Virus record (IMG/VR): IMGVR_UViG_2687453563_000005
Origin: a virus
Taxonomy: Duplodnaviria; Heunggongvirae; Uroviricota; Caudoviricetes
Strand: one strand, 5' to 3'
DNA length: 22,967 bases
Of the stretch, positions 3,375 to 21,599 are shown piece by piece. The position numbers and the translations under genes are program-made. Every line of letters begins with the position of its first letter. The first letter of the stretch is position 1. The notes under the pieces are model-generated. The model was not told where the DNA came from, ran no database searches, and saw only the letters and a program-made list of their open reading frames with translations.

Positions 3375-6300
3375 TCAATGTTCGCTTCCTGTTAACTGCC
3401 CGACAAGTGCAACCAGTTCGCTTACCTGATTTTCCAGAGTGGTGATCCGGGTGCCTGCTGTTGCCAGATTTTGACGTAGCGTTGTGTTTTCCTCTTCCAG
3501 CGCGGTAACGCGATCATCTGTTTCACGGGCGACCTGAACAAGTAAGCCCGTCACGGCGGCGTAGTCAACATTCAGATAACGCGTTTCTTCACGTAATTCA
3601 TTGCCGTCAACCGTTGGTCCCTGCAACTCTTTACCGTAATGAGTGAATGAGCCTACCGCTTCCGGTATTGCCTCCATTGCTTCCTGTGCAATAACACCAG
3701 CGTAAGGCAGTCCGTTTTCCTTAAGTGTGTAGGTGTACCCGTTCATTTTACGGATAGCTTCGGTTGCGTCACTGATAATCTGAATATTGTCTTTCAGCTC
3801 GCGGTCTGATAACTGATTCAGTGTTGTACAGTTAATAGCACCGTTTACATCAAACAGCTGACCTGACGATGTTTTTTGAGCATAAAACAGATACGCGGCA
3901 GTCGTTCCAACCTCAAAAACGTTTTGTCGATCACCTGAACCCCACACCTTGACAGCAAATGGTAGTTCTGTATTACCTAAGTTCTGTAAAACAAAACGAT
4001 TGCCAGTCCCTGTTTGTTTTGTAAGGGTTAAATCAACAGTTGAGTTAACCTCATCCTTGTTGATAGTGAGCGCCTGCGCTGTAGCCCCGTTAACAGCACC
4101 TGTTTTGAGTTGAACCGCGCCGTCATTACCATTTAGCAGTATCTCAGCTCCGCTAAAGAAATTTTTTAGCGATAGCATCTTACTTACGCCGACTGATGAA
4201 CCCAACGCCCACGCGAGAGAATTACCGGTGCTATCAAACCCACGTACAAAGCAATCCATTTTGCTATAGTCTGACGTGCTTCCAAGGACATCAATCCGCC
4301 CTCCGCCAGATTTTATCGGGTTAGATGTGGTTAATGACCTGACAGCAATATCGGTAGATGAATTGAGATCGTCTACTGTTAGTAATTTCTTCCATTCCTG
4401 CGTCGTTCCATTTTCAATTGTTCTTCCCCAAAAACCGGAATTGCGGCCTCCGAACTGCACAGCATAATTTTTACTAAATTGAACATGAATGCCGCCAAGA
4501 ACCATAGAGCCTGCCGGGCCGTTTGTACTGCCTGCAATTGATCTAAATTTGTCGACGTTATCAGTATGCTGAGCGTTCCAGTCATGACCTGTTAATGTTG
4601 CAATTCCTGAGTTAGCTGTAATTAACCCAGACGCTTTAAGATTCTGCACATCAATTCTGTCGTTTGCGAAATTATATGCAATTGCGTTACTAACGCTTCC
4701 GGCATCATCATAATCGCGTTTCTGAATAAACCAGTCGCCAGCATTAGCAATGAGAGTATAAGTAGGCGTGTTAGCCGGGCGATCTGTTTCATTAAATCTT
4801 ATTGCTGGGTTAGCGCTCCTTATTTGTAAAGGTTTTTCAACCGTTGATTTCAGTATCGCACTATCTACAATTAAATTACCTTCTGAATTAAGGTTTAGAT
4901 ATTTTGAAGCACCAGTTGAACCATCGTATGTAAACCTTATTGTTAATTGACCTGGCTCATTTGATAAAGTTTCAACATACATATCAGCACCAAGACGCAC
5001 AGTGCTGTCAGTTGCTAACAGTCTTGTATGGAGAATTCCACTAGATGTGTATGTATTGGTCGAATCACTATATCTATCAAGAAATAGACTGTTAAGTTGA
5101 GGGCTGTTGTTCCTACCTAAGCCAAGATTCGTTCTGGCACCATCAACAGTTGCCGCATTAGTGCCTCCTTGTCCAATAGGTAATGGAACCCATGACGATC
5201 CGTTATGGCAACCCCACAATCCAGATGTTGACACCTGAAGTCGTGGCGCTGATGGTGAGTAATTCGAATAAACGTAAGTAGTCGATTCGCCTTCTTCAAT
5301 TCTTTCTGTTAATACTATTTTTTTCCATACACTCCAACCTTGTGTGCTGGTATATATCCTTCTATAAAGAATTGATGAATTGTTATATACAAAATAGCTC
5401 TGGATACAACCATCACTACCATTAGCACCAGTTCTTTGCACTAACAATGCACCAGCAAGCTGTATCGGGTAATTTAGTTCTGGCTTTGCGTTGGCAGACA
5501 TTGGTTGGTAATAAAAACCGGCTGTAGTACCTTTTATATCGTTTAAGTTCGTATTCGCATCAAGGCCAGTTTTTGCTTCAAACATGACTTCAAGTTTAGA
5601 GCGCGCTGTACTTGCATCATTCGCCCCTGTGCCACCTTGCGCAACTGCGAGCGGTTGCCATCTACCAGCTTTAGGGTTAAATGCGCCCCACTGACCGTCA
5701 GCATCAACCTGTAAGTAACAGCCGTCCGCCTGAACGTCAGTAGATAAAATGATGGTTCTTGTGTCGCTTGAACGCTGAAATCGGATAACCTCATCTTTTC
5801 TTGCGTGGCGTGTCCATTGCGGGCCTATTGTCGGATTCCAGCGATAAGTATAAAGCGAGCGCGTAGCCCATCCCTGAAATACACCTGTATACGCTGGTGT
5901 TCCATCTACCTGACTAATAAACCCCGTAAGACTGCTTTCACCGGATGCAATCGATGGAAATCCTTTTGCATTACTCATAATGCGCATAAATCCGATATAC
6001 CCTGATGGGTTGCCGGAAATATCAGGACAATCACGCGGGGCTGAGCCAAGACCGATATTATCGCCAACAATTAATTGCGCCTGGTTGCGATAATTAAGTG
6101 CGTCCGCCGCAGATTTCGCCGCGTTTGTTTCACTGGATTTAGCATTAGTTTCGCTGGCTTTAGCGTTTGTTTCGCTGCTCTTTGCTGCTGCCTCGCTATT
6201 TTTCGCGTTGGTTTCTGATTTTTTGGCTGCTGTCGCGGAGTTTGCCGATGCAGTTTGTGAGTCTGCTGCCGCCTGTGCGCTGTTACCCGCAATATAAAGG

Positions 6301-7082
6301 CGTCCGTCCTGCATCTGCTGCAGCTTCACTGCCCACATGCTGTTCAGGTTATTATTTGTATCAACCTGAACCTTCTGTATCTGCTGGATCGCTGCACTCT
6401 GGTCTTCCAGTTTCTTATTGACGGTCTGTGTTATTTCATTGCTGACATCCGTTATGGACGTCCTGATTTCAGTCAGGTCAGGCGCAAGCTGACCGTTATC
6501 AATCTGCGTCCACAGCTCCTGAGCCAGATGGGTTTTCCCTATCCGGATATTAAACGGGCGCGGCGGCAGGTTATCCACCACCACCGAGGCCAGATACTGC
6601 GAGGTGGTTTTGCCCTTAATGGTGATGTCTTTTTCCGTCACCCAGCCACCATTACGCTGTATCTGAACCAGCAGGCGAACTTCCGACGGATTCCGGTCCC
6701 CCTTTGAGGTGGTTTCCACCAGTGCCTGCACGCCGAAGGTAAAGCGCAGACGGTCGATGTTTGCAGACGTAATGGTGCGGGTGATCGGCGTGTCATATTT
6801 CACTTCCGTACCCAGCACCGTCTCGGAGCCGGAGGATTCAAACCCCTCCGGCGGTGTCTGCTCCTGCTCACCGGCACGGAACACCACCGTGACACCGGAG
6901 ATGTTGGTATTCCCCTCAGTGTCCAGCACCGGCGTACTGTTCAGCAGCTCGCTTTTTAATCCATCCACCGGACCTTCAACCGGCCCTTCGCTGATGGCAT
7001 CGATCACACTCAGCAGCTGCGTGGACTTCAGGTTGTCCTTCGCTTCGCGCGGGGTATGCCCCTTACTGCTGCCTTTACCCAT
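3375..7082 (-). CDS. Mosaic tail fibre protein (1235 aa): lambda J-like N-terminus, short J C-region segment, Stf-like SETNAK repeats, fibre domain, C-terminal S74-type intramolecular chaperone
   Basis: Starts MGKGSSKGHTPREAKDNLKSTQLLSVIDAISEGP... (lambda J N-terminus as recalled); then MWAVKLQQMQDGRLYIAG (J C-region-like); AAKKSETNAKNSEAAAKSSETNAKASETNAK repeats; C-terminus ...SDRELKDNIQIISDATEAIRKMNGYTYTLKENG... typical of autocleaving chaperone domain. Confidence 0.8.
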   Translation of the reverse strand: MGKGSSKGHTPREAKDNLKSTQLLSVIDAISEGPVEGPVDGLKSELLNSTPVLDTEGNTNISGVTVVFRAGEQEQTPPEGFESSGSETVLGTEVKYDTPITRTITSANIDRLRFTFGVQALVETTSKGDRNPSEVRLLVQIQRNGGWVTEKDITIKGKTTSQYLASVVVDNLPPRPFNIRIGKTHLAQELWTQIDNGQLAPDLTEIRTSITDVSNEITQTVNKKLEDQSAAIQQIQKVQVDTNNNLNSMWAVKLQQMQDGRLYIAGNSAQAAADSQTASANSATAAKKSETNAKNSEAAAKSSETNAKASETNAKSSETNAAKSAADALNYRNQAQLIVGDNIGLGSAPRDCPDISGNPSGYIGFMRIMSNAKGFPSIASGESSLTGFISQVDGTPAYTGVFQGWATRSLYTYRWNPTIGPQWTRHARKDEVIRFQRSSDTRTIILSTDVQADGCYLQVDADGQWGAFNPKAGRWQPLAVAQGGTGANDASTARSKLEVMFEAKTGLDANTNLNDIKGTTAGFYYQPMSANAKPELNYPIQLAGALLVQRTGANGSDGCIQSYFVYNNSSILYRRIYTSTQGWSVWKKIVLTERIEEGESTTYVYSNYSPSAPRLQVSTSGLWGCHNGSSWVPLPIGQGGTNAATVDGARTNLGLGRNNSPQLNSLFLDRYSDSTNTYTSSGILHTRLLATDSTVRLGADMYVETLSNEPGQLTIRFTYDGSTGASKYLNLNSEGNLIVDSAILKSTVEKPLQIRSANPAIRFNETDRPANTPTYTLIANAGDWFIQKRDYDDAGSVSNAIAYNFANDRIDVQNLKASGLITANSGIATLTGHDWNAQHTDNVDKFRSIAGSTNGPAGSMVLGGIHVQFSKNYAVQFGGRNSGFWGRTIENGTTQEWKKLLTVDDLNSSTDIAVRSLTTSNPIKSGGGRIDVLGSTSDYSKMDCFVRGFDSTGNSLAWALGSSVGVSKMLSLKNFFSGAEILLNGNDGAVQLKTGAVNGATAQALTINKDEVNSTVDLTLTKQTGTGNRFVLQNLGNTELPFAVKVWGSGDRQNVFEVGTTAAYLFYAQKTSSGQLFDVNGAINCTTLNQLSDRELKDNIQIISDATEAIRKMNGYTYTLKENGLPYAGVIAQEAMEAIPEAVGSFTHYGKELQGPTVDGNELREETRYLNVDYAAVTGLLVQVARETDDRVTALEEENTTLRQNLATAGTRITTLENQVSELVALVGQLTGSEH

Positions 7083-10017: not shown

Positions 10018-10047
10018 ATAATACGCCCCATGCAGGGGCGTATTATT
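10016..10047. terminator. Bidirectional rho-independent terminator shared by KAP gene and Q (overlaps Q stop codon)
   Basis: aaataatacgcccc-atgca-ggggcgtattatt: 13-bp perfect inverted repeat with 5-nt loop, A/T-rich on both sides. Confidence 0.6.
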
Positions 10048-10414
10048 AAACGTCCAAATCTAATGTTAGATCTAGCATGGAAAGGCAGCCATCAATAAAT
10101 CCTTCGGCTAGCTGTATTTCTATACGTATCAATTTCTCATCTTTTTTACGAGCCTTGGCGAGCTTTCTTTTAGAGATACCGTATAGGTAATGGGCAACAA
10201 GAAGCGAATGTTCGTCCGGCCTTTTTTGCTTTAGATGAGCAAGACAACCTTCAATAATTAAGGCATCACTATCCGAACAAGCCAAGCGTTTCTTGCTTGT
10301 ATAGGGAAGAAGTCCCTTAAACCCAGCGGCTATAGGTGAATAATCAACGCCTGAACTATCACTCGCCGCCCATGCCCCCCAACGCTCCAGAACCATCTGA
10401 ATATCACGCATCAA
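10046..10414 (-). CDS. Late-gene antitermination protein Q (phage 82/21-type Q family, 122 aa)
   Basis: MMRDIQMVLERWGAWAA...SPIAAGFKGLLP... resembles QuuD-type antiterminators as recalled; last gene of the cro-to-Q operon. Confidence 0.75.
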   Translation of the reverse strand: MMRDIQMVLERWGAWAASDSSGVDYSPIAAGFKGLLPYTSKKRLACSDSDALIIEGCLAHLKQKRPDEHSLLVAHYLYGISKRKLAKARKKDEKLIRIEIQLAEGFIDGCLSMLDLTLDLDV

Positions 10415-13916: not shown

Positions 13917-14255
13917 CTATTTCCCTGAATTTACGACGAAACTGTTCGAGCGGGCTGAAGCACTCATGCTCATAGCCTTCGCGGAGGTAGATAACCCGTT
14001 GTGTTTCCGGTTCCCAACGAATGACTCTGACGGGCACTCCGTAGTGATCTTTGAACCAGCGGTTAACTTGTCGCAAAGGACTGTCTCCTTCTGCCGGTTG
14101 AAATCACCCACAGCCCACTCTGCAAAGCTGTGGGTTACAATTTCCCTGTCACCTGGTACATTTACTGCATAGCAATACTCCACCTTCGCTTTTCCACCCG
14201 GTACAGGAAGCGCAATCAGTTGCGAGCGACGGTAGTGTGTTGTTAAACTGTTCAT
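13917..14255 (-). CDS. Hypothetical protein (112 aa), translationally coupled to upstream gene
   Basis: ATG at 14253..14255 overlaps the upstream TGA (ATGA); no motif recognised; contains an 8-bp inverted repeat cccacagc/gctgtggg at about 14110..14137. Confidence 0.4.
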
Positions 14256-14866
14256 GCGTTAGTTTCTCCACAACCAGAAGCAATCGACGCCACGACGCCC
14301 GGAGCTGCACACTCGCGGGCGTCATTACTTTCTGAAATGCAAAAAATTTTGTAGACAAGTGCTGCATGCTCCTGCAGCTTCGAAATTGAGAGATACAGCT
14401 CGTCGTTAATTGCTGTCTTCTCATGCGGTTCCACTACACCGTCTTCGATTGCTGAACGAATCTGTTTTGAATAACTGCCGATCTGTTCAATGACTTCCAG
14501 CAGACGCTGGTTAATATCGGCGTTGTCCACATCCTCGACGTCAGGAAGAGACACAAAGACGCCATTTGCAGACTGCGCCACAGCGTCAGCAATGAAGTGA
14601 GTTCCACCAGCACGTTGCAAAATCATTGCCCATCCCAGCGGGAAAATCTGATCGCCATCGGCACGAAGGCGGTTAAATAATGCGTTCTCTGTTACATCCA
14701 GCCAGTCAGCTGCTTCAGCGTAACCCCCCGGCAACGCTGCGATAGTTTTTCTGACAGCTTTCACGTACCACTCAGGCTGTTTTTCTACTTTCCAGTGATG
14801 CTTACCCACGGTTAGCCTCATCGTTCTGTGGTTTCTGTTAATCGATTTATCCATTAGATTTTTCAT
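14252..14866 (-). CDS. CII-like/YdaT-like phage regulatory protein in the post-cro position (~205 aa; start uncertain, ATG at 14866 or 14854)
   Basis: Sits directly downstream of cro as in lambdoid prophages; family assignment from position and general resemblance only; ORF-track start at 14923 is a GTG inside cro. Confidence 0.5.
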
Positions 14867-15047
14867 AAAGCTCAGGTTTAAATGGCAACCGTCCGCAAGT
14901 TCTATATGCAGCTTCTGCTGCACGTCCTTTTGGAATTAACTGGCCCGGACGGTTTCGCCACTGATAAACGGCTTCAGTTGTTATGCCGAAAAAAGCAGCA
15001 ACTTTCTCAATACTGCCGAAGTAGCTTTCGATATCGTCAGTTGTCAT
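14847..15047 (-). CDS. Cro-like repressor (66 aa, YdaS/Cro-type HTH)
   Basis: Small HTH protein (FGITTEAVYQWRNR) transcribed divergently from the cI-like gene. Confidence 0.7.
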   Translation of the reverse strand: MTTDDIESYFGSIEKVAAFFGITTEAVYQWRNRPGQLIPKGRAAEAAYRTCGRLPFKPELYEKSNG

Positions 15048-15144
15048 ACGCCCTCCAAACTAAGTTTTATTAGATGCTAATTACAAATCTATCTTTGGTC
15101 AATAAAAACTAAGATTACTTAGCAATTAAAGAAATGGTGCTCCT
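15048..15144. promoter_or_regulatory. cI/cro divergent promoter-operator region
   Basis: 97-bp AT-rich spacer between divergent repressor genes with repeated CTAAG/CTTAG motifs (aactaagtttta, attagatgctaat, aactaagattacttag). Confidence 0.4.
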
Positions 15145-15771
15145 ATGGAAACGGTTGGTCAGCGTATAAAAGCTCTGAGAAGAGTTACCAGAACGTCCCA
15201 GAAAGAATTGGGTAAATTTTGTGGAGTAAGCGACGTTGCTGTGGGGTACTGGGAGAAAGACATCAATACCCCTGGTGGGGAGGCACTTTCGAAATTAGCG
15301 AAGTTCTTCAATACGTCAATAGATTACATTCTTTATGGTGCTGAGTTTGAAGGCAAACTCGTCACAAACATGCGCAGAGTTCCTGTAATATCGTGGGTTC
15401 AGGCTGGGCAGTTTACTGAGTGCAGGGCAGCAGAAGTGTTTAGTGAAGTGGACAAGTGGGTAGATACATCATTAAAGGTTGGTGATAACTCATTTGCATT
15501 AGAGGTTAAAGGTGACTCCATGACTAACCCTAATGGCCTCCCAACAATACCAGAAGGCGCAACAGTGATTGTAGATCCAGATGCAGAACCTCGTCATGGA
15601 AAAATAGTCATCGCTCGACTTGATGGAACAAACGAAGCTACAGTAAAAAAATTAGTCATCGATGGCCCTCAAAAGTTTTTAGTACCATTAAATCCTCGGT
15701 ATCCCAACATCCCTATCAATGGTAATTGCCTTATCATTGGTGTAGTCAAAGGAGTTCAATACGAACTCTAA
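15145..15771 (+). CDS. CI-type prophage repressor: XRE HTH plus LexA-like S24 peptidase domain (208 aa)
   Basis: N-terminal HTH (IKALRRVTRTSQKELGKFCGVSDVAVGYWE) and C-terminal autocleavage domain with GDSM serine motif and downstream Lys (VKKLV). Confidence 0.9.
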   Translation: METVGQRIKALRRVTRTSQKELGKFCGVSDVAVGYWEKDINTPGGEALSKLAKFFNTSIDYILYGAEFEGKLVTNMRRVPVISWVQAGQFTECRAAEVFSEVDKWVDTSLKVGDNSFALEVKGDSMTNPNGLPTIPEGATVIVDPDAEPRHGKIVIARLDGTNEATVKKLVIDGPQKFLVPLNPRYPNIPINGNCLIIGVVKGVQYEL

Positions 15772-15934
15772 GGCCTCTCTTCTCTAACTAAGGCACCGAA
15801 CTAAGAAAAGTTTGGTGTTTTCTCTTGCCATGACAACTAAGTTAAGTTAGATTTTATATCAAAGATAACGAACAGGCAGGACGCCCACGAAGTAGCCGCC
15901 TGGGGCATATGAAGTCCAGGATGATTCGTTAGCA

Positions 15935-16001: not shown

Positions 16002-16523
16002 TTAAGGAATCCAAGGCGAATTCAGATCTCGCCCCAACTCACGTAATGATCTTGGTCGTTCGTACATCGGATTTTTTTCCATAAGAAATTTATTTTCACA
16101 GTGAAGGCAACGGCTTGTAAGAAAATGAGAAGTTTTACCTACTGGAAGCGGATGAAGTATCGATTTTATATTTTTGGAATAACAAAGTGGGCACAGATGC
16201 ACAGTTATTTCTTTTCCACTCACAATTTCATTTTTAGAGTAAACAAAAGCACCAGAGTCAAGCTGATCAAGGACATATCCTTCTACCTTGGCACAAAAAT
16301 CTTCAAACTCTGCAATTTTTGCTTTGAGATGCATCACCTCTTCATCACGAAGGCGGATCGCATCGCCAAGAGAGAAGCATTCTGCCTGAAGCGTGATTAG
16401 TTTGTTCTGGAGTTCAATGGTTGCAGCTTTAACTTCTGCATCCGTTTTCGCGTCATTAATAACCTTAGCAAGACCGGCAGTCTCCTTTATAGCGGCCATA
16501 GCCGCAGACAGTTCAGCTATCAC
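16002..16523 (-). CDS. Hypothetical protein (~165-173 aa): N-terminal coiled coil, C-terminal CxxC...CxxC zinc-ribbon-like motif; AT-rich moron beside cI
   Basis: Heptad-like N-terminus; CPLCYS...CLHCEN cysteine pairs; own terminator; composition differs from flanks; GTG at 16523 or ATG at 16499 as start. Confidence 0.5.
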   Translation of the reverse strand: MIAELSAAMAAIKETAGLAKVINDAKTDAEVKAATIELQNKLITLQAECFSLGDAIRLRDEEVMHLKAKIAEFEDFCAKVEGYVLDQLDSGAFVYSKNEIVSGKEITVHLCPLCYSKNIKSILHPLPVGKTSHFLTSRCLHCENKFLMEKNPMYERPRSLRELGRDLNSPWIP

Positions 16524-16855
16524 GTTGAATACTCAGCTAGTTGTTGGGGATATCCAGATTAACCAAATCCTTGTTGTTGGGGAATAACTAGGTCCACCTC
16601 GCCTGATGTGGCTAAAAGCAGGCACATAACAGCTAAGTATTTTCAACCAGAGAGAATCCTTAGCGTTGTGGTGAATGCGGCTCAGCGCACGCGGGTTAAG
16701 GTTGAGGCTGACAGTCGACCTTCTGTGGATACCCACCCGCCTGGTGTGCAACCTTCGCCAGGCACCGGGAGGCACCCGGCACCACAACTTTATGCTGTGT
16801 GTAGTCCTCGCGGTACCAGTTTGTACACTTGCTTCCGGCTGGTACCGCTCTTTTT

Positions 16856-16944
16856 ACAAAACAGAGAAGAACATCACCGGACGACGGGCTCATAACCCAA
16901 TCCATCCGGGCGGCTGCCACCGCAGGTGTTCTTCTCTGTTTTGT
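16856..16944. repeat. 18-bp perfect inverted repeat (acaaaacagagaagaaca / tgttcttctctgttttgt) enclosing ~53 bp; a second 9-bp inverted repeat (cggtaccag/ctggtaccg) lies just upstream at 16811..16848
   Basis: Read directly from the sequence; located about 50 nt upstream of the YfdP-like start. Confidence 0.6.
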
Positions 16945-16992
16945 GGAGAAACCAACCGACCTTGCAGGGTCGATATGATTAGGAGCAGAAAA

Positions 16993-17355
16993 ATGGCTAG
17001 CGAACGCAGTACTGATGTGCAGGCATTTATTGGGGAGCTGGACGGCGGCGTATTTGAAACCAAAATCGGCGCAGTTCTCAGTGAAGTCGCTTCCGGTGTG
17101 ATGAACACGAAAACCAAAGGTAAGGTCTCACTCAACCTGGAAATCGAACCATTTGATGAGAACCGTGTGAAAATCAAACACAAACTCTCATATGTTCGCC
17201 CGACTAACCGCGGGAAAATTTCCGAAGAAGACACCACCGAAACGCCGATGTATGTCAATCGCGGTGGTCGCCTGACTATTCTGCAGGAAGACCAGGGACA
17301 ATTACTGACTCTTGCCGGTGAACCTGACGGAAAACTCCGCGCAGCAGGTCATTAA
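16993..17355 (+). CDS. YfdP-like prophage protein (120 aa)
   Basis: AGGAG Shine-Dalgarno 7 nt upstream of ATG at 16993; the longer 16675 ORF-track start is rejected; family call from memory of the CPS-53 yfdP/yfdQ gene neighbourhood. Confidence 0.5.
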   Translation: MASERSTDVQAFIGELDGGVFETKIGAVLSEVASGVMNTKTKGKVSLNLEIEPFDENRVKIKHKLSYVRPTNRGKISEEDTTETPMYVNRGGRLTILQEDQGQLLTLAGEPDGKLRAAGH

Positions 17356-18372: not shown

Positions 18373-18909
18373 ATGTCATTTATTAAAACTTTTTCCGGGA
18401 AGCATTTTTATTATGACAGGATAAATAAAGACGACATCGTTATTAACGATATCGCGGTTTCTCTTTCAAATATCTGTCGCTTTGCAGGGCATCTTTCACA
18501 TTTCTACAGCGTTGCCCAACATGCGGTGCTTTGCAGCCAACTGGTACCGCAGGAATTTGCTTTTGAAGCGTTAATGCATGATGCAACAGAAGCGTATTGC
18601 CAGGACATCCCGGCGCCACTGAAACGCCTTCTTCCTGACTATAAACGGATGGAAGAAAAAATAGATGCAGTAATCCGTGAGAAATACGAGTTGCCCCCGG
18701 TTATGAGCACGCCCGTGAAATATGCCGATCTCATCATGCTGGCAACCGAACGCCGTGATCTCGGGCTTGATGATGGCTCTTTATGGCCTGTACTGGAAGG
18801 TATCCCGGCAACAGAGATGTTCAAAGTTATTCCACTGGCACCGGGCCATGCCTACGGGATGTTTATGGAACGCTTCAACGAGTTATCGGAATTACGCAAA
18901 TGTGCATAA
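18373..18909 (+). CDS. HD-domain phosphohydrolase (YfbR/YfdR-like 5'-deoxynucleotidase family), ~178 aa
   Basis: H...HD...D pattern (FAGHLSHFYSVAQHAV...ALMHDATEAY...D); GGAG Shine-Dalgarno before ATG at 18373. Confidence 0.7.
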   Translation: MSFIKTFSGKHFYYDRINKDDIVINDIAVSLSNICRFAGHLSHFYSVAQHAVLCSQLVPQEFAFEALMHDATEAYCQDIPAPLKRLLPDYKRMEEKIDAVIREKYELPPVMSTPVKYADLIMLATERRDLGLDDGSLWPVLEGIPATEMFKVIPLAPGHAYGMFMERFNELSELRKCA

Positions 18910-20119: not shown

Positions 20120-20469
20120 TGGAGCCATACAGCCTCACACTCGATGAGGCCTGTCATTTTCTCAAGATATCCAGACCGACTGCCATTAACTGGATACGCA
20201 CAGGGCGTCTTCAGGCAACACGCAAAGATCCCACTAAGAATAAATCTCCTTACCTCACAACACGACAAGCCTGCATTGCGGCTCTTCAGTCTCCGCTGCA
20301 TACTGTCCAGGTGAGCGCGGGTGATGGCATAACAGAGGAAAGAAAATGTCACTCTTCCGCAGAGGTGAAATATGGTACGCCAGTTTCACATTGCCGAACG
20401 GTAAAAGATTTAAACAGTCTCTTGGAACAAAGGACAAAAGGCAGGCGACAGAACTCCATGACAAGCTAA
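20119..20469 (+). CDS. xis: Excisionase (AlpA/Xis-family HTH), ~116 aa
   Basis: [34 protein letters not shown]; resembles P22 Xis as recalled; 3' end overlaps int in another frame. Confidence 0.75.
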
Positions 20470-21509
20470 AGGCTGAAGCATGGCGGGTCAGCAAACTTGG
20501 TGAAATACCTGATATAACGTTCGAGGAAGCGTGTGTCAGGTGGCTTGAAGAGAAAGCACATAAAAAATCACTGGACGATGACAAAAGCCGGATCGGATTC
20601 TGGCTTCAACATTTCGCAGGAATGCAACTAAGAGACATTACTGAATCAAAAATTTATTCAGCAATGCAGAAAATGACGAACCGGCGTCATGAGGAAAACT
20701 GGAAACTCAGGGCAGAAGCATGCAGAAAAAAAGGGAAACCTGTTCCAGAATACACGCCAAAACCAGCGTCCGTTGCAACGAAGGCTACGCATCTTTCATT
20801 TATAAAGGCCCTACTAAGAGCCGCAGAGCGTGAATGGAAAATGCTGGATAAGGCACCAATTATTAAAGTGCCTCAACCAAAGAATAAACGGATCCGCTGG
20901 CTGGAGCCCCATGAAGCACAAAGGCTGATTGATGAATGTCCGGAGCCATTAAAGTCTGTTGTTGAATTTGCACTGGCAACAGGCTTAAGACGCTCGAACA
21001 TCATCAACCTTGAATGGCAACAAATAGATATGCAGCGCCGGGTGGCATGGATAAACCCAGAAGAGAGTAAATCAAACCGCGCAATCGGCGTTGCGCTGAA
21101 TGATACTGCATGTCGCGTTTTGAAAAAACAAATCGGGAATCATCACCGTTGGGTATTTGTGTACAAGGAAAGCTGTACCAAACCAGACGGAACGAAAGCG
21201 CCAACAGTAAGGAAGATGCGGTATGACGCAAACACAGCCTGGAAAGCGGCGCTGAGACGGGCTGGTATTGATGATTTCAGATTTCACGACTTGAGACACA
21301 CCTGGGCAAGTTGGCTGGTTCAAGCCGGAGTCCCGTTGTCAGTGTTACAGGAAATGGGAGGCTGGGAGTCTATCGAAATGGTTCGTCGATATGCTCACCT
21401 TGCACCTAATCACCTTACCGAACACGCACGGCAAATAGACTCGATCCTGAACCCATCGGTCCCAAATTTGTCCCAGTCAAAAAATAAGGAAGGTACTAAT
21501 GATGTGTAA
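20346..21509 (+). CDS. int: Tyrosine integrase, P22-Int-like (387 aa)
   Basis: N-terminus [48 protein letters not shown] and catalytic HDLRHTWAS...RRYAHL motifs; GAGGAA Shine-Dalgarno; next to thrW, the P22 attachment site. Confidence 0.9.
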
Positions 21510-21523
21510 CTTATTGATTTAAA

Positions 21524-21569
21524 TGGTGCCGATAATAGGAGTCGAACCTACGACCTTCGCATTACGAAT
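21524..21569. other. Probable att core overlapping the 3' portion of thrW; extent approximate
   Basis: Integrase 3' end lies 15 bp from the tRNA 3' end; P22-type att cores overlap the tRNA 3' part by about 46 bp; partner copy not found in the window. Confidence 0.4.
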
Positions 21570-21599
21570 GCGCTGCTCTACCAACTGAGCTATATCGGC
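21524..21599 (-). tRNA. thrW: tRNA-Thr (anticodon CGT), thrW
   Basis: Reverse complement gccgatatagctcagttggtagagcagcgcattcgtaatgcgaaggtcgtaggttcgactcctattatcggcacca folds as a 76-nt cloverleaf with CGT anticodon and CCA end. Confidence 0.9.

Follow-up and report, generated by a model that had tools for sequence, protein, structure and literature searches.

A conserved three-way-junction RNA with a tRNA-like core in the yfdP operon leader of lambdoid prophages

The early-left leader of an SfV/ST64B/e14-type prophage

The DNA analysed here (the window, 22,967 nucleotides in all) contains the immunity region of a lambdoid prophage of the SfV/ST64B/e14 type. The genes for Q, a CII-like protein and Cro lie on the minus strand, and the repressor gene and the operon that begins with yfdP lie on the plus strand. 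After yfdP, the plus strand carries yfdQ (DUF2303), an HD-domain gene, a PAPS-reductase-like gene and the integrase gene, and the position of this operon is that of the pL operon of lambda. The landmarks of the region are as follows.

10046-10414, minus strand: Q (PF06530)
14252-14923, minus strand: CII-like protein
14847-15047, minus strand: Cro (P22_Cro)
15145-15771, plus strand: repressor, HTH and S24
15825-15853, plus strand: candidate pL-like promoter, TTGCCA-17-TAGATT, from a consensus scan and a reading of the sequence
16635-16857, plus strand: STnc100 sRNA (Rfam RF02076), a full-length match including the terminator (49.1 bits, gathering score 47, E 5e-8)
16810-16857, plus strand: intrinsic terminator of STnc100, a 10-bp stem (GCGGUACCAG/CUGGUACCGC) with a 19-nt loop, then CUCUUUUUA
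16993-17355, plus strand: yfdP, the first early-left gene, with its ATG at 16993 and the Shine-Dalgarno sequence AGGAG at 16982-16986
20346-21509, plus strand: integrase, the last gene of the yfdP...int operon
21527-21599, minus strand: tRNA gene, beyond the integrase gene

The promoter-like site just after the repressor gene overlaps an operator-like sequence, ACTAAGTTAAGTTAG, similar to the CTAAG..CTTAG repeats found in the interval from cro to the repressor gene; judging from the sequence, we infer that this site may be pL. No N-like gene was found between the repressor gene and yfdP, either in the window or in mEp460, LLS, phiNP and Stx2a_1447.

The element described in this study lies in the leader of the yfdP operon, 45-50 nt before the first start codon, and an initial reading of the window made from the sequence alone (hereafter the sequence-only reading) had correctly located it upstream of a YfdP-like operon. 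An ORF of 173 aa without a Pfam match runs antisense between the pL-like site and the element. The sequence-only reading had also described a 9-bp inverted repeat immediately upstream of the large one, and had noted that a U-run is missing. The small repeat is present with a length of 10 bp (16810-16819 / 16839-16848), and the absence of a U-run holds for the large repeat but not for the small one, which runs into CUCUUUUUA. This small repeat is the intrinsic terminator that forms the 3' end of the Rfam STnc100 match at 16635-16857; both the terminator and the small RNA had escaped the sequence-only reading, and our consensus terminator scan likewise overlooked the terminator, solely owing to its 19-nt loop. 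The stem and the U run of the terminator are kept in 40 of the 41 distinct homologs. Of the large repeat, the STnc100 model takes in only the first 2 nt of the 5' arm, which places the large hairpin outside the family. STnc100 copies elsewhere are transcribed in uninduced lysogens, and RpoD-bound promoter regions have been shown for the copies of Salmonella LT2 (PMC5331693, PMC10794520). As the large hairpin starts at the U run of the STnc100 terminator, only read-through transcripts contain the element.

Fold and covariation of the leader element

A repeat search of the window recovered the perfect 18-bp inverted repeat (arms 16856-16873 / 16927-16944) that had been reported from the sequence, together with the inner ccgg...ccgg pairing (16877-16880 / 16906-16909). 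In RNA form the repeat grows to a helix of 20 bp (16856-16875 / 16925-16944), and in the minimum free energy fold this basal helix reaches 25 bp once the U run at 16851-16855 pairs with GGAGA at 16945-16949. The inner repeat corresponds to CCGGA (16877-16881) paired with UCCGG (16905-16909), which closes a first hairpin, A, and a second hairpin, B, follows it directly; the whole element is thus a three-way junction RNA at 16851-16949 on the plus strand. The arms of 25 nt that the repeat search also returned (16856-16880 / 16920-16944, 88%) run too far inward, into sequence that forms part of hairpins A and B. The parts of the element and its downstream flank are listed below, all on the plus strand.

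16851-16855: U run of the terminator, which in read-through RNA can pair with GGAGA at 16945-16949; UUUUU and GGAGA are both conserved in alignment A2
16856-16875: basal helix, 5' strand, 20 bp, holding the left 18-bp arm
16877-16909: hairpin A, with the closing stem CCGGA/UCCGG, G-C and A-U pairs, an internal loop and an apex
16885-16898: apex of hairpin A, CGGGCUCAUAACCC, identical in 14 of 14 nt to the anticodon stem-loop of E. coli initiator tRNA-fMet
16910-16923: hairpin B, GCGG-CUGCCA-CCGC, from the fold and from covariation in the late-type copies (described below)
16925-16944: basal helix, 3' strand, holding the right 18-bp arm
16945-16952: conserved GGAGAAAC after the helix, in alignments A1 and A2
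16957-16972: small G+C-rich hairpin, CGACC-UUGCAG-GGUCG, after the element and before the ribosome-binding site

Homologs have other sequences at the site of the small hairpin and form a hairpin there all the same.

The segment 16850-16950 folds with -51.2 kcal/mol, compared with -24.7 +/- 3.1 kcal/mol for 200 dinucleotide shuffles (z -8.5), and none of the 200 folded as well. Folding of both strands, which the sequence-only reading had proposed as a check, showed that the reverse complement of the single sequence in the window folds about equally well, and the strand was read from the homologs instead. In alignment A2, which comprises 41 distinct homologs with hairpin B removed, the basal helix has 20 bp in 41 of 41 sequences without a single indel, so that every homolog has the continuous duplex of about 20 bp or more expected of an RNase III substrate, 25 bp when extended. 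Paired cells make up 96.1% of this helix, and six of its pairs are altered on both sides (for example, from A-U to C-G, from G-C to C-G and from G-C to A-U); pairing fell to only 41-50% in a control in which the 3' partner was slid by 1-3 columns, and no shuffle reached the observed covariation score. The helix cells contain 66 G.U against 2 A.C combinations; therefore, the folded molecule is the plus-strand RNA and not the opposite strand or a DNA cruciform.

Hairpin A covaries as well. Its pair 34-58 is G-C in 21 sequences, A-U in 13 and G.U in 4, and its closing stem is wholly different, yet paired, in the copies from Klebsiella, Pantoea, Raoultella and Acidobacteriaceae. Between hairpin A and the 3' basal strand, the segment with hairpin B measures 12, 13, 14, 16, 31, 33, 35 or 37 nt in the homologs. 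Two conserved C.A juxtapositions occur in hairpin A, which the opposite strand would make G.U; we treat them as features of the internal loop, because the element is co-oriented with the operon wherever this was checked. A minus-strand reading was set aside on the G.U and A.C counts and on this co-orientation with the flanking operon. A boxA-like sequence, CGCUCUUUUUACAA, was also considered as a boxA/nut site and rejected, as its core GCUCUUU varies in homologs (GUCCUUU, GCCCUUU, GACCUUU). Taken with the fixed place of the element upstream of the first gene of the operon, the covariation and the strand-specific G.U pairs bear out the suggestion, first made from the sequence, of a structured leader RNA.

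Distribution and tRNA-sized relatives

The 101-nt element is present in 2807 of 5426 complete E. coli genomes (52%), with a median of one copy and a maximum of five per genome, nearly all of them chromosomal. It is carried by 71 phage records, including SfV, SfII, SfIV, ST64B, mEp460, cdtI, Stx2a- and Stx2c-converting phages, LLS, Citrobacter phiNP and one Klebsiella phage; SfV, SfII and SfIV are serotype-converting phages of Shigella, and ST64B is a phage of Salmonella. The K-12 copy lies in e14 upstream of xisE-intE, beneath the annotated 'gene' ymfH. Prophages of more than 12 genera of Enterobacterales keep the helix through compensatory changes; when one genome per species was searched, copies turned up in prophages of Citrobacter, Enterobacter, Kosakonia, Mixta, Trabulsiella, Buttiauxella, Leclercia, Phytobacter, Pseudescherichia, Pseudocitrobacter, Erwinia, Klebsiella, Raoultella and Pantoea. 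In most of these genera the order is the same, namely the terminator, the long helix with hairpins A and B, GGAGAAAC, a small hairpin, and a Shine-Dalgarno sequence with its ATG.

Similarity to the window starts only at 16810 in mEp460, cdtI and the Stx2c phages and stops at about 16969 in SfII, and at least five different genes follow the element, xisE being the one in e14. Mosaic exchange on either side leaves the element intact. The element is clearly under selection.

The most widely conserved part is hairpin A and not the long repeat. A block of 21 nt in hairpin A, GACGGGCUCAUAACCCAAUCC, is almost invariant; it recurs with unrelated flanking stems in phages of Klebsiella, Raoultella and Pantoea, and it is also found in an Acidobacteriaceae metagenome-assembled genome, in a prophage-like region beside a muramidase-like ORF. 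The apex within hairpin A, CGGGCUCAUAACCC, corresponds to positions 28-41 of tRNA-fMet in the standard numbering, that is, to three G-C pairs and the loop CUCAUAA, and its positions are each conserved in 36-41 of the 41 sequences. The tRNA-fMet sequence used for this comparison matches annotated tRNA-Met genes at 100%, with 4 copies per genome. Three G-C pairs in the anticodon stem are typical of initiator tRNAs. By a rough estimate, about 8e-5 matches of 14 nt to any E. coli tRNA would be expected by chance, a figure to be read with the fact that the likeness was noticed after the fact. Neither ARAGORN nor the Rfam tRNA model called a tRNA at the element, in the window or in the late-type loci, and neighbouring true tRNAs were called. 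Pairing of the CAU loop with a downstream start codon was considered and rejected: the 7-nt complement UAUGAGC occurs in phiNP-type phages and is absent from the window and the other types.

A second form of the element, which we call late-type, occurs as 43 distinct copies in viral contigs from two scans. Where the flanks were examined, these copies belong to the late region of other temperate phages, a few nucleotides beyond the CCA end of a tRNA gene; in Klebsiella phage 2 LV-2017, for example, the order is Q, STnc100, tRNA-Asn, tRNA-Arg, the element and a terminator. They are 70-71 nt long and consist of a 6-bp acceptor-like stem (GGCCUG/CAGGCC), hairpin A and a covarying hairpin B of 6-7 bp, without a D arm and without a T loop. 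The stem is directly followed by [G/A]CCA in 41 of the 43 distinct copies, and the third G-C pair of the apex is replaced by G.U. The copy in the window has no CCA end, and its long helix is followed by GGAGAAAC.

A covariance model, R1, was built from the tRNA-array copies alone, without the sequence type of the window. It matched the window at 16870-16934 on the plus strand with 44.3 bits (E 2.4e-8) over its full length (model positions 1-71), and in the alignment the two hairpins A correspond to each other, as do the two hairpins B, and the acceptor-like stem falls on the top 6 bp of the long helix. The model also finds the copies of LLS, phiNP, Kp4866-6, e14, ST64B, Pantoea, Raoultella and Acidobacteriaceae. 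The homology of the core in the window to the 70-71-nt tRNA-like RNA of phage tRNA arrays is near certain, as is the structure of the element. The small RNA gene that the sequence-only reading had offered as one possibility was half right, in that STnc100 lies adjacent upstream and the core is homologous to a tRNA-like RNA that stands free elsewhere.

A third type has a basal stem of only 5 bp and no CCA. One copy of this type (locus L147) follows a terminator and is flanked by a Q-like gene and a holin-like ORF, and the loci L261-L276 share its basal stem.

The element resembles several known RNAs in part. Like STnc100, which lies directly beside it and has PasD as a relative, it is a prophage RNA of early-left and late leaders; it differs in that the canonical STnc100 copy, downstream of stx2B, has no large hairpin after it, and in a Klebsiella phage two tRNA genes separate STnc100 from the element. 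The C4 antisense RNA of P1 and P7 and the CI RNA of P4 (clan CL00128) are likewise small tRNA-like RNAs in phage operon leaders; two hairpins and a basal stem that ends in a CCA-like sequence make up their structure, and they are cut out by tRNA-processing enzymes. The C4/CI models (RF01695 or related) gave no match at the element, with E cut-offs of 10 in the window and 0.1 in related loci, and the C4 model found a true C4 elsewhere in Stx2a_1447 (locus L131). In contrast to C4 and CI RNAs, the element has a loop with the sequence of an anticodon arm, and no complementary target sites were found for it; a search of four phages for a conserved complement of the hairpin A loop gave no shared site. 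Like initiator tRNA and tRNA mimics such as the thrS operator and viral tRNA-like structures, the element presents the 14 nt of an anticodon stem-loop, and the late-type copies add the size of a tRNA, a location in tRNA arrays and an acceptor-like stem with RCCA. Unlike a tRNA, it lacks a D arm and T loop and is passed over by tRNA finders, and the copy in the window lacks the CCA end.

A scan against Rfam 15 for a family of the element itself, also proposed by the sequence-only reading, gave only chance hits far below gathering scores, and at a permissive threshold the region 16400-17200 yielded STnc100 and chance matches to microRNAs and ribozymes only. We found no description of the element in the searchable literature. 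The new component is thus an element that resembles RNase III leader hairpins and tRNA-like phage RNAs and stands outside any described family, STnc100 itself being already known. Although about half of complete E. coli genomes contain the element, Rfam lacks a family for it, and database annotation often makes it a hypothetical protein (ymfH). Three previously unconnected things meet in it: STnc100 with its terminator, the early-left leader of N-less lambdoid phages, and a tRNA-sized RNA in phage tRNA arrays.

Possible processing and function

We propose that the element acts as a leader three-way-junction RNA from which RNase III releases a tRNA-mimic core, a scheme to which we give about an even chance as a whole. 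A transcript that reads through the STnc100 terminator would carry the element in the yfdP leader. In the sequence type of the window, a duplex of fixed length (20 bp, or 25 bp when extended) replaces the acceptor-like stem, and host RNase III may cut this long duplex in the read-through RNA. Duplexes of about two helical turns are substrates of E. coli RNase III, and RNase III hairpins of this kind are present in the lambda N leader and the metY-nusA leader. The cut would detach the leader with STnc100 and its terminator from the yfdP mRNA, leaving a new 5' end beside the small hairpin, which may be stabilising, and it would also free the tRNA-mimic core. In the tRNA arrays, tRNA-processing enzymes might free the core instead, as they do with the P1 C4 and P4 CI RNAs, which are tRNA-like RNAs cut out of phage leaders. 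In the third type, the basal stem of only 5 bp and the missing CCA imply that excision may not be universal.

Cleavage of the long helix by RNase III is evenly balanced in our judgement, and a 20-25-bp duplex of the kind that serves as RNase III substrate makes the processing site that had been suggested from the sequence plausible. Leader hairpins for RNase III are known from the lambda N leader, the early mRNA sites of T7 and the E. coli metY-rimP-nusA-infB leader. The element is like these in that a duplex of about two turns separates the first cistron from a non-coding RNA or terminator upstream of it. The metY operon has initiator tRNA itself in this upstream position, with terminators and the RNase III hairpin after it. 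No sequence kinship with these hairpins exists, and the duplex of the element differs from them in bearing a conserved three-way junction with a tRNA-like core. A search of the literature on ymfH together with RNase III returned nothing relevant. Even as a mere processing module, the element would mark a likely site of mRNA maturation in the yfdP operon.

A purely cis-acting leader structure is the main rival, though an unlikely one; without yielding any trans-acting product, it would shield or shape the 5' end of the yfdP mRNA, keep Rho from loading or adjust how the first gene is translated. The likeness to tRNA-fMet would then be a coincidence or a relic of descent from a tRNA gene. The pL-type, L147 and L265 copies lie about 35-75 nt before the first start codon whatever the gene (yfdP, an sb37-like gene, xisE or a holin-like ORF), a small hairpin and a Shine-Dalgarno sequence always come next, and the lack of a conserved base-pairing target fits such a role. 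Against this stand the 21 nt that are near-invariant across genera and even phyla, as in Acidobacteriaceae with unrelated stems, which far exceeds the needs of a stabilising hairpin, and the acceptor-like stem with RCCA that the core has in tRNA arrays. Furthermore, the core in Klebsiella phage 2 LV-2017 is followed by a terminator of its own, and hence it is no gene leader there.

If the core is released as our scheme supposes, it may act in trans, which we regard as less likely than the cleavage by RNase III. The freed core would act via a factor that recognises the initiator anticodon arm, candidates being a tRNA-fMet-specific nuclease such as VapC/MvpT, the P site of the 30S subunit and MetRS. 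One specific possibility, quite unlikely in our estimate, is that the core is a phage decoy of the initiator anticodon arm that occupies host factors or is cut by them, thereby shielding translation initiation during infection or induction. Its source would be the earliest read-through RNA of the early-left operon; in other phages, tRNA arrays of the late region would supply it. The prime candidates to be decoyed would be the PIN-domain toxins VapC/MvpT of Shigella, Salmonella and many other bacteria. VapC/MvpT cleave tRNA-fMet at the anticodon stem-loop. According to a review, these toxins cleave structures like the anticodon stem-loop in general (PMC7180214). In a variant of the decoy, the core would engage the 30S P site. 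A functional mimicry of the initiator anticodon would give a lead on how temperate phages cope with host toxins that target tRNAs, or on how they manipulate the initiation of translation; should the decoy or the P-site reading be true, about half of E. coli genomes would carry a new class of RNA counter-defence or translation modulator.

We consider it decidedly improbable that the element is a processive antiterminator resembling the put RNAs, in which the nascent hairpins would bind RNA polymerase and allow an N-less phage to read through early-left terminators or Rho sites. The element holds the putL/nutL position in the pL-side leader of N-less lambdoid phages and has two hairpins with invariant unpaired bases, just as the put RNAs of HK022 form two stem-loops in the early leader of an N-less lambdoid phage, and the authors of the LLS paper noted the absence of N and proposed a put-like mechanism (PMC12315714). 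However, it has no similarity to the pL/pR region of HK022, in which model R1 matches nothing; blastn-short against the HK022 immunity region gave only chance matches of 8-14 nt, and R1 found no match in loci L004 and L005. Unlike put, the element has a long enclosing helix and occurs as a single copy per phage, with none in the rightward operon. It also lies downstream of the one clear terminator of the leader, no strong terminator candidates were seen in the operon, and the core occurs in late operons that already have Q and in CCA-ended tRNA arrays. The antitermination site that the sequence-only reading had listed among its options thus found no positive support.

That the large hairpin itself halts transcription, as a conditional terminator or attenuator, is highly improbable: it is a very stable leader hairpin whose distal right arm is U-rich (GUUUUGU), but no U run follows 16944, our scan gave no plus-strand terminator there, and the U-rich stretch is part of the helix and varies among homologs, many of which read GUUGUGU.

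A miniature inverted-repeat transposable element, or a DNA palindrome bound by protein or extruded as a cruciform, is scarcely credible. Long terminal inverted repeats about 89 bp apart and a presence in many genomes speak for the miniature insertion that the sequence-only reading had listed, but no direct repeats or target-site duplications flank the element (CUCUUUUU|ACAAAAC...GUUUUGU|GGAGAAAC), and the compensatory changes in the arms with strand-specific G.U pairs fit an RNA helix instead. The search for further copies in the same genome, proposed as a sign of mobility, returned the median of one copy per genome, and every copy examined lies in a prophage operon leader. Relatives with the same flanking genes and no element, which the sequence-only reading had named as grounds for refutation, did not appear; all 46 of 46 phage records with yfdP-yfdQ at an identity of at least 95% carry it, and none of the phage records with a close yfdP homolog was without it.

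A protein-coding reading of the region is hardly tenable either. RefSeq places ymfH of K-12 over the e14 copy and hypothetical proteins over copies elsewhere, and in the window an ORF at 16675-17355 crosses the element in frame with yfdP; however, the substitutions are paired across the helix and do not fall at third codon positions, the segment with hairpin B varies by lengths that are not multiples of three, and a terminator lies within the region. The ymfH-like ORFs are probably not genes.

Sequence surrounding the structured RNA

A full-length match to the small RNA STnc100 (window 16635-16857, + strand) lies directly 5' of the nested inverted repeat, and the small inverted repeat mentioned in the sequence-only reading is the terminator of STnc100. 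Phages of the mEp460 type have a diverged version that retains the CGUUGUGGUGAAUGCG and CACCACAAC motifs and receives no Rfam call. In the e14 element of E. coli K-12, the annotated ORF ymfH (locus L001, 2821-3132) overlaps both the structured RNA and the terminator of STnc100, and 'hypothetical protein' annotations also overlie the matching sequence in many complete E. coli genomes. Because the substitutions follow the pattern of an RNA helix, ymfH and similar ORFs are probably not real genes.

In the window and its homologs, hairpin B of the structured RNA (loop 16914-16919) and the small hairpin downstream of it (loop 16962-16967) often share a UUGCAG/UGGCAG-like loop; in some homologs, a near-identical hairpin is present twice (GGCGGUUGCAGCCGCC).

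In two related phages, the antirepressor region also gives small RNA matches:

L003 21-97, - strand (ST64B), and L131 7895-8083, + strand (Stx2a_1447): isrK and C4 antisense RNA matches, respectively

These matches indicate that such phages carry several predicted leader-embedded small RNAs.

A complement and distant copies of hairpin A

One site in the window is complementary to the apex of hairpin A, the tRNA-fMet-like arm of the structured RNA:

18699-18708, + strand: GGUUAUGAGC, a 10-nt perfect complement of the apex, within the HD-domain gene

Another 6 nt can pair nearby, and the computed energy of the whole interaction is -21.5 kcal/mol. This complementarity may be due to chance, as no equivalent site was found in LLS, phiNP or ST64B.

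A 21-nt block of hairpin A occurs exactly in an Acidobacteriaceae metagenome-assembled genome (L146 2556-2615, - strand, and L263), that is, in a distant phylum, within a G+C-rich prophage-like region and adjoining a muramidase-like ORF. The stems that flank the block in these copies are wholly different.

Repressor flanks and probable prophage end

The remaining features concern the repressor region and the more distant parts of the window:

15780-15860 and 15055-15125: repeats resembling operators (CTAAG..CTTAG, ACTAAGTTAAGTTAG), flanking the repressor gene on both sides
16002-16523, - strand: 173-aa ORF, antisense within the presumed pL leader
21527-21599, - strand: tRNA gene directly past the integrase gene
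3375-7082, - strand: 1235-aa ORF, a very large one, lying in the half of the window away from the structured RNA

The right-hand operator-like repeats overlap the sole promoter-like site found (15825-15853), and together they probably represent OL/pL. The 173-aa ORF, which has no Pfam match and to which a terminator-like site at 15960-15941 (- strand) belongs, resembles a moron. LLS lacks this ORF, and in mEp460 other genes occupy the corresponding position. The tRNA gene, apparently tRNA-Thr (anticodon CGU, as read from the Rfam alignment), is probably the attachment site that marks the prophage end.
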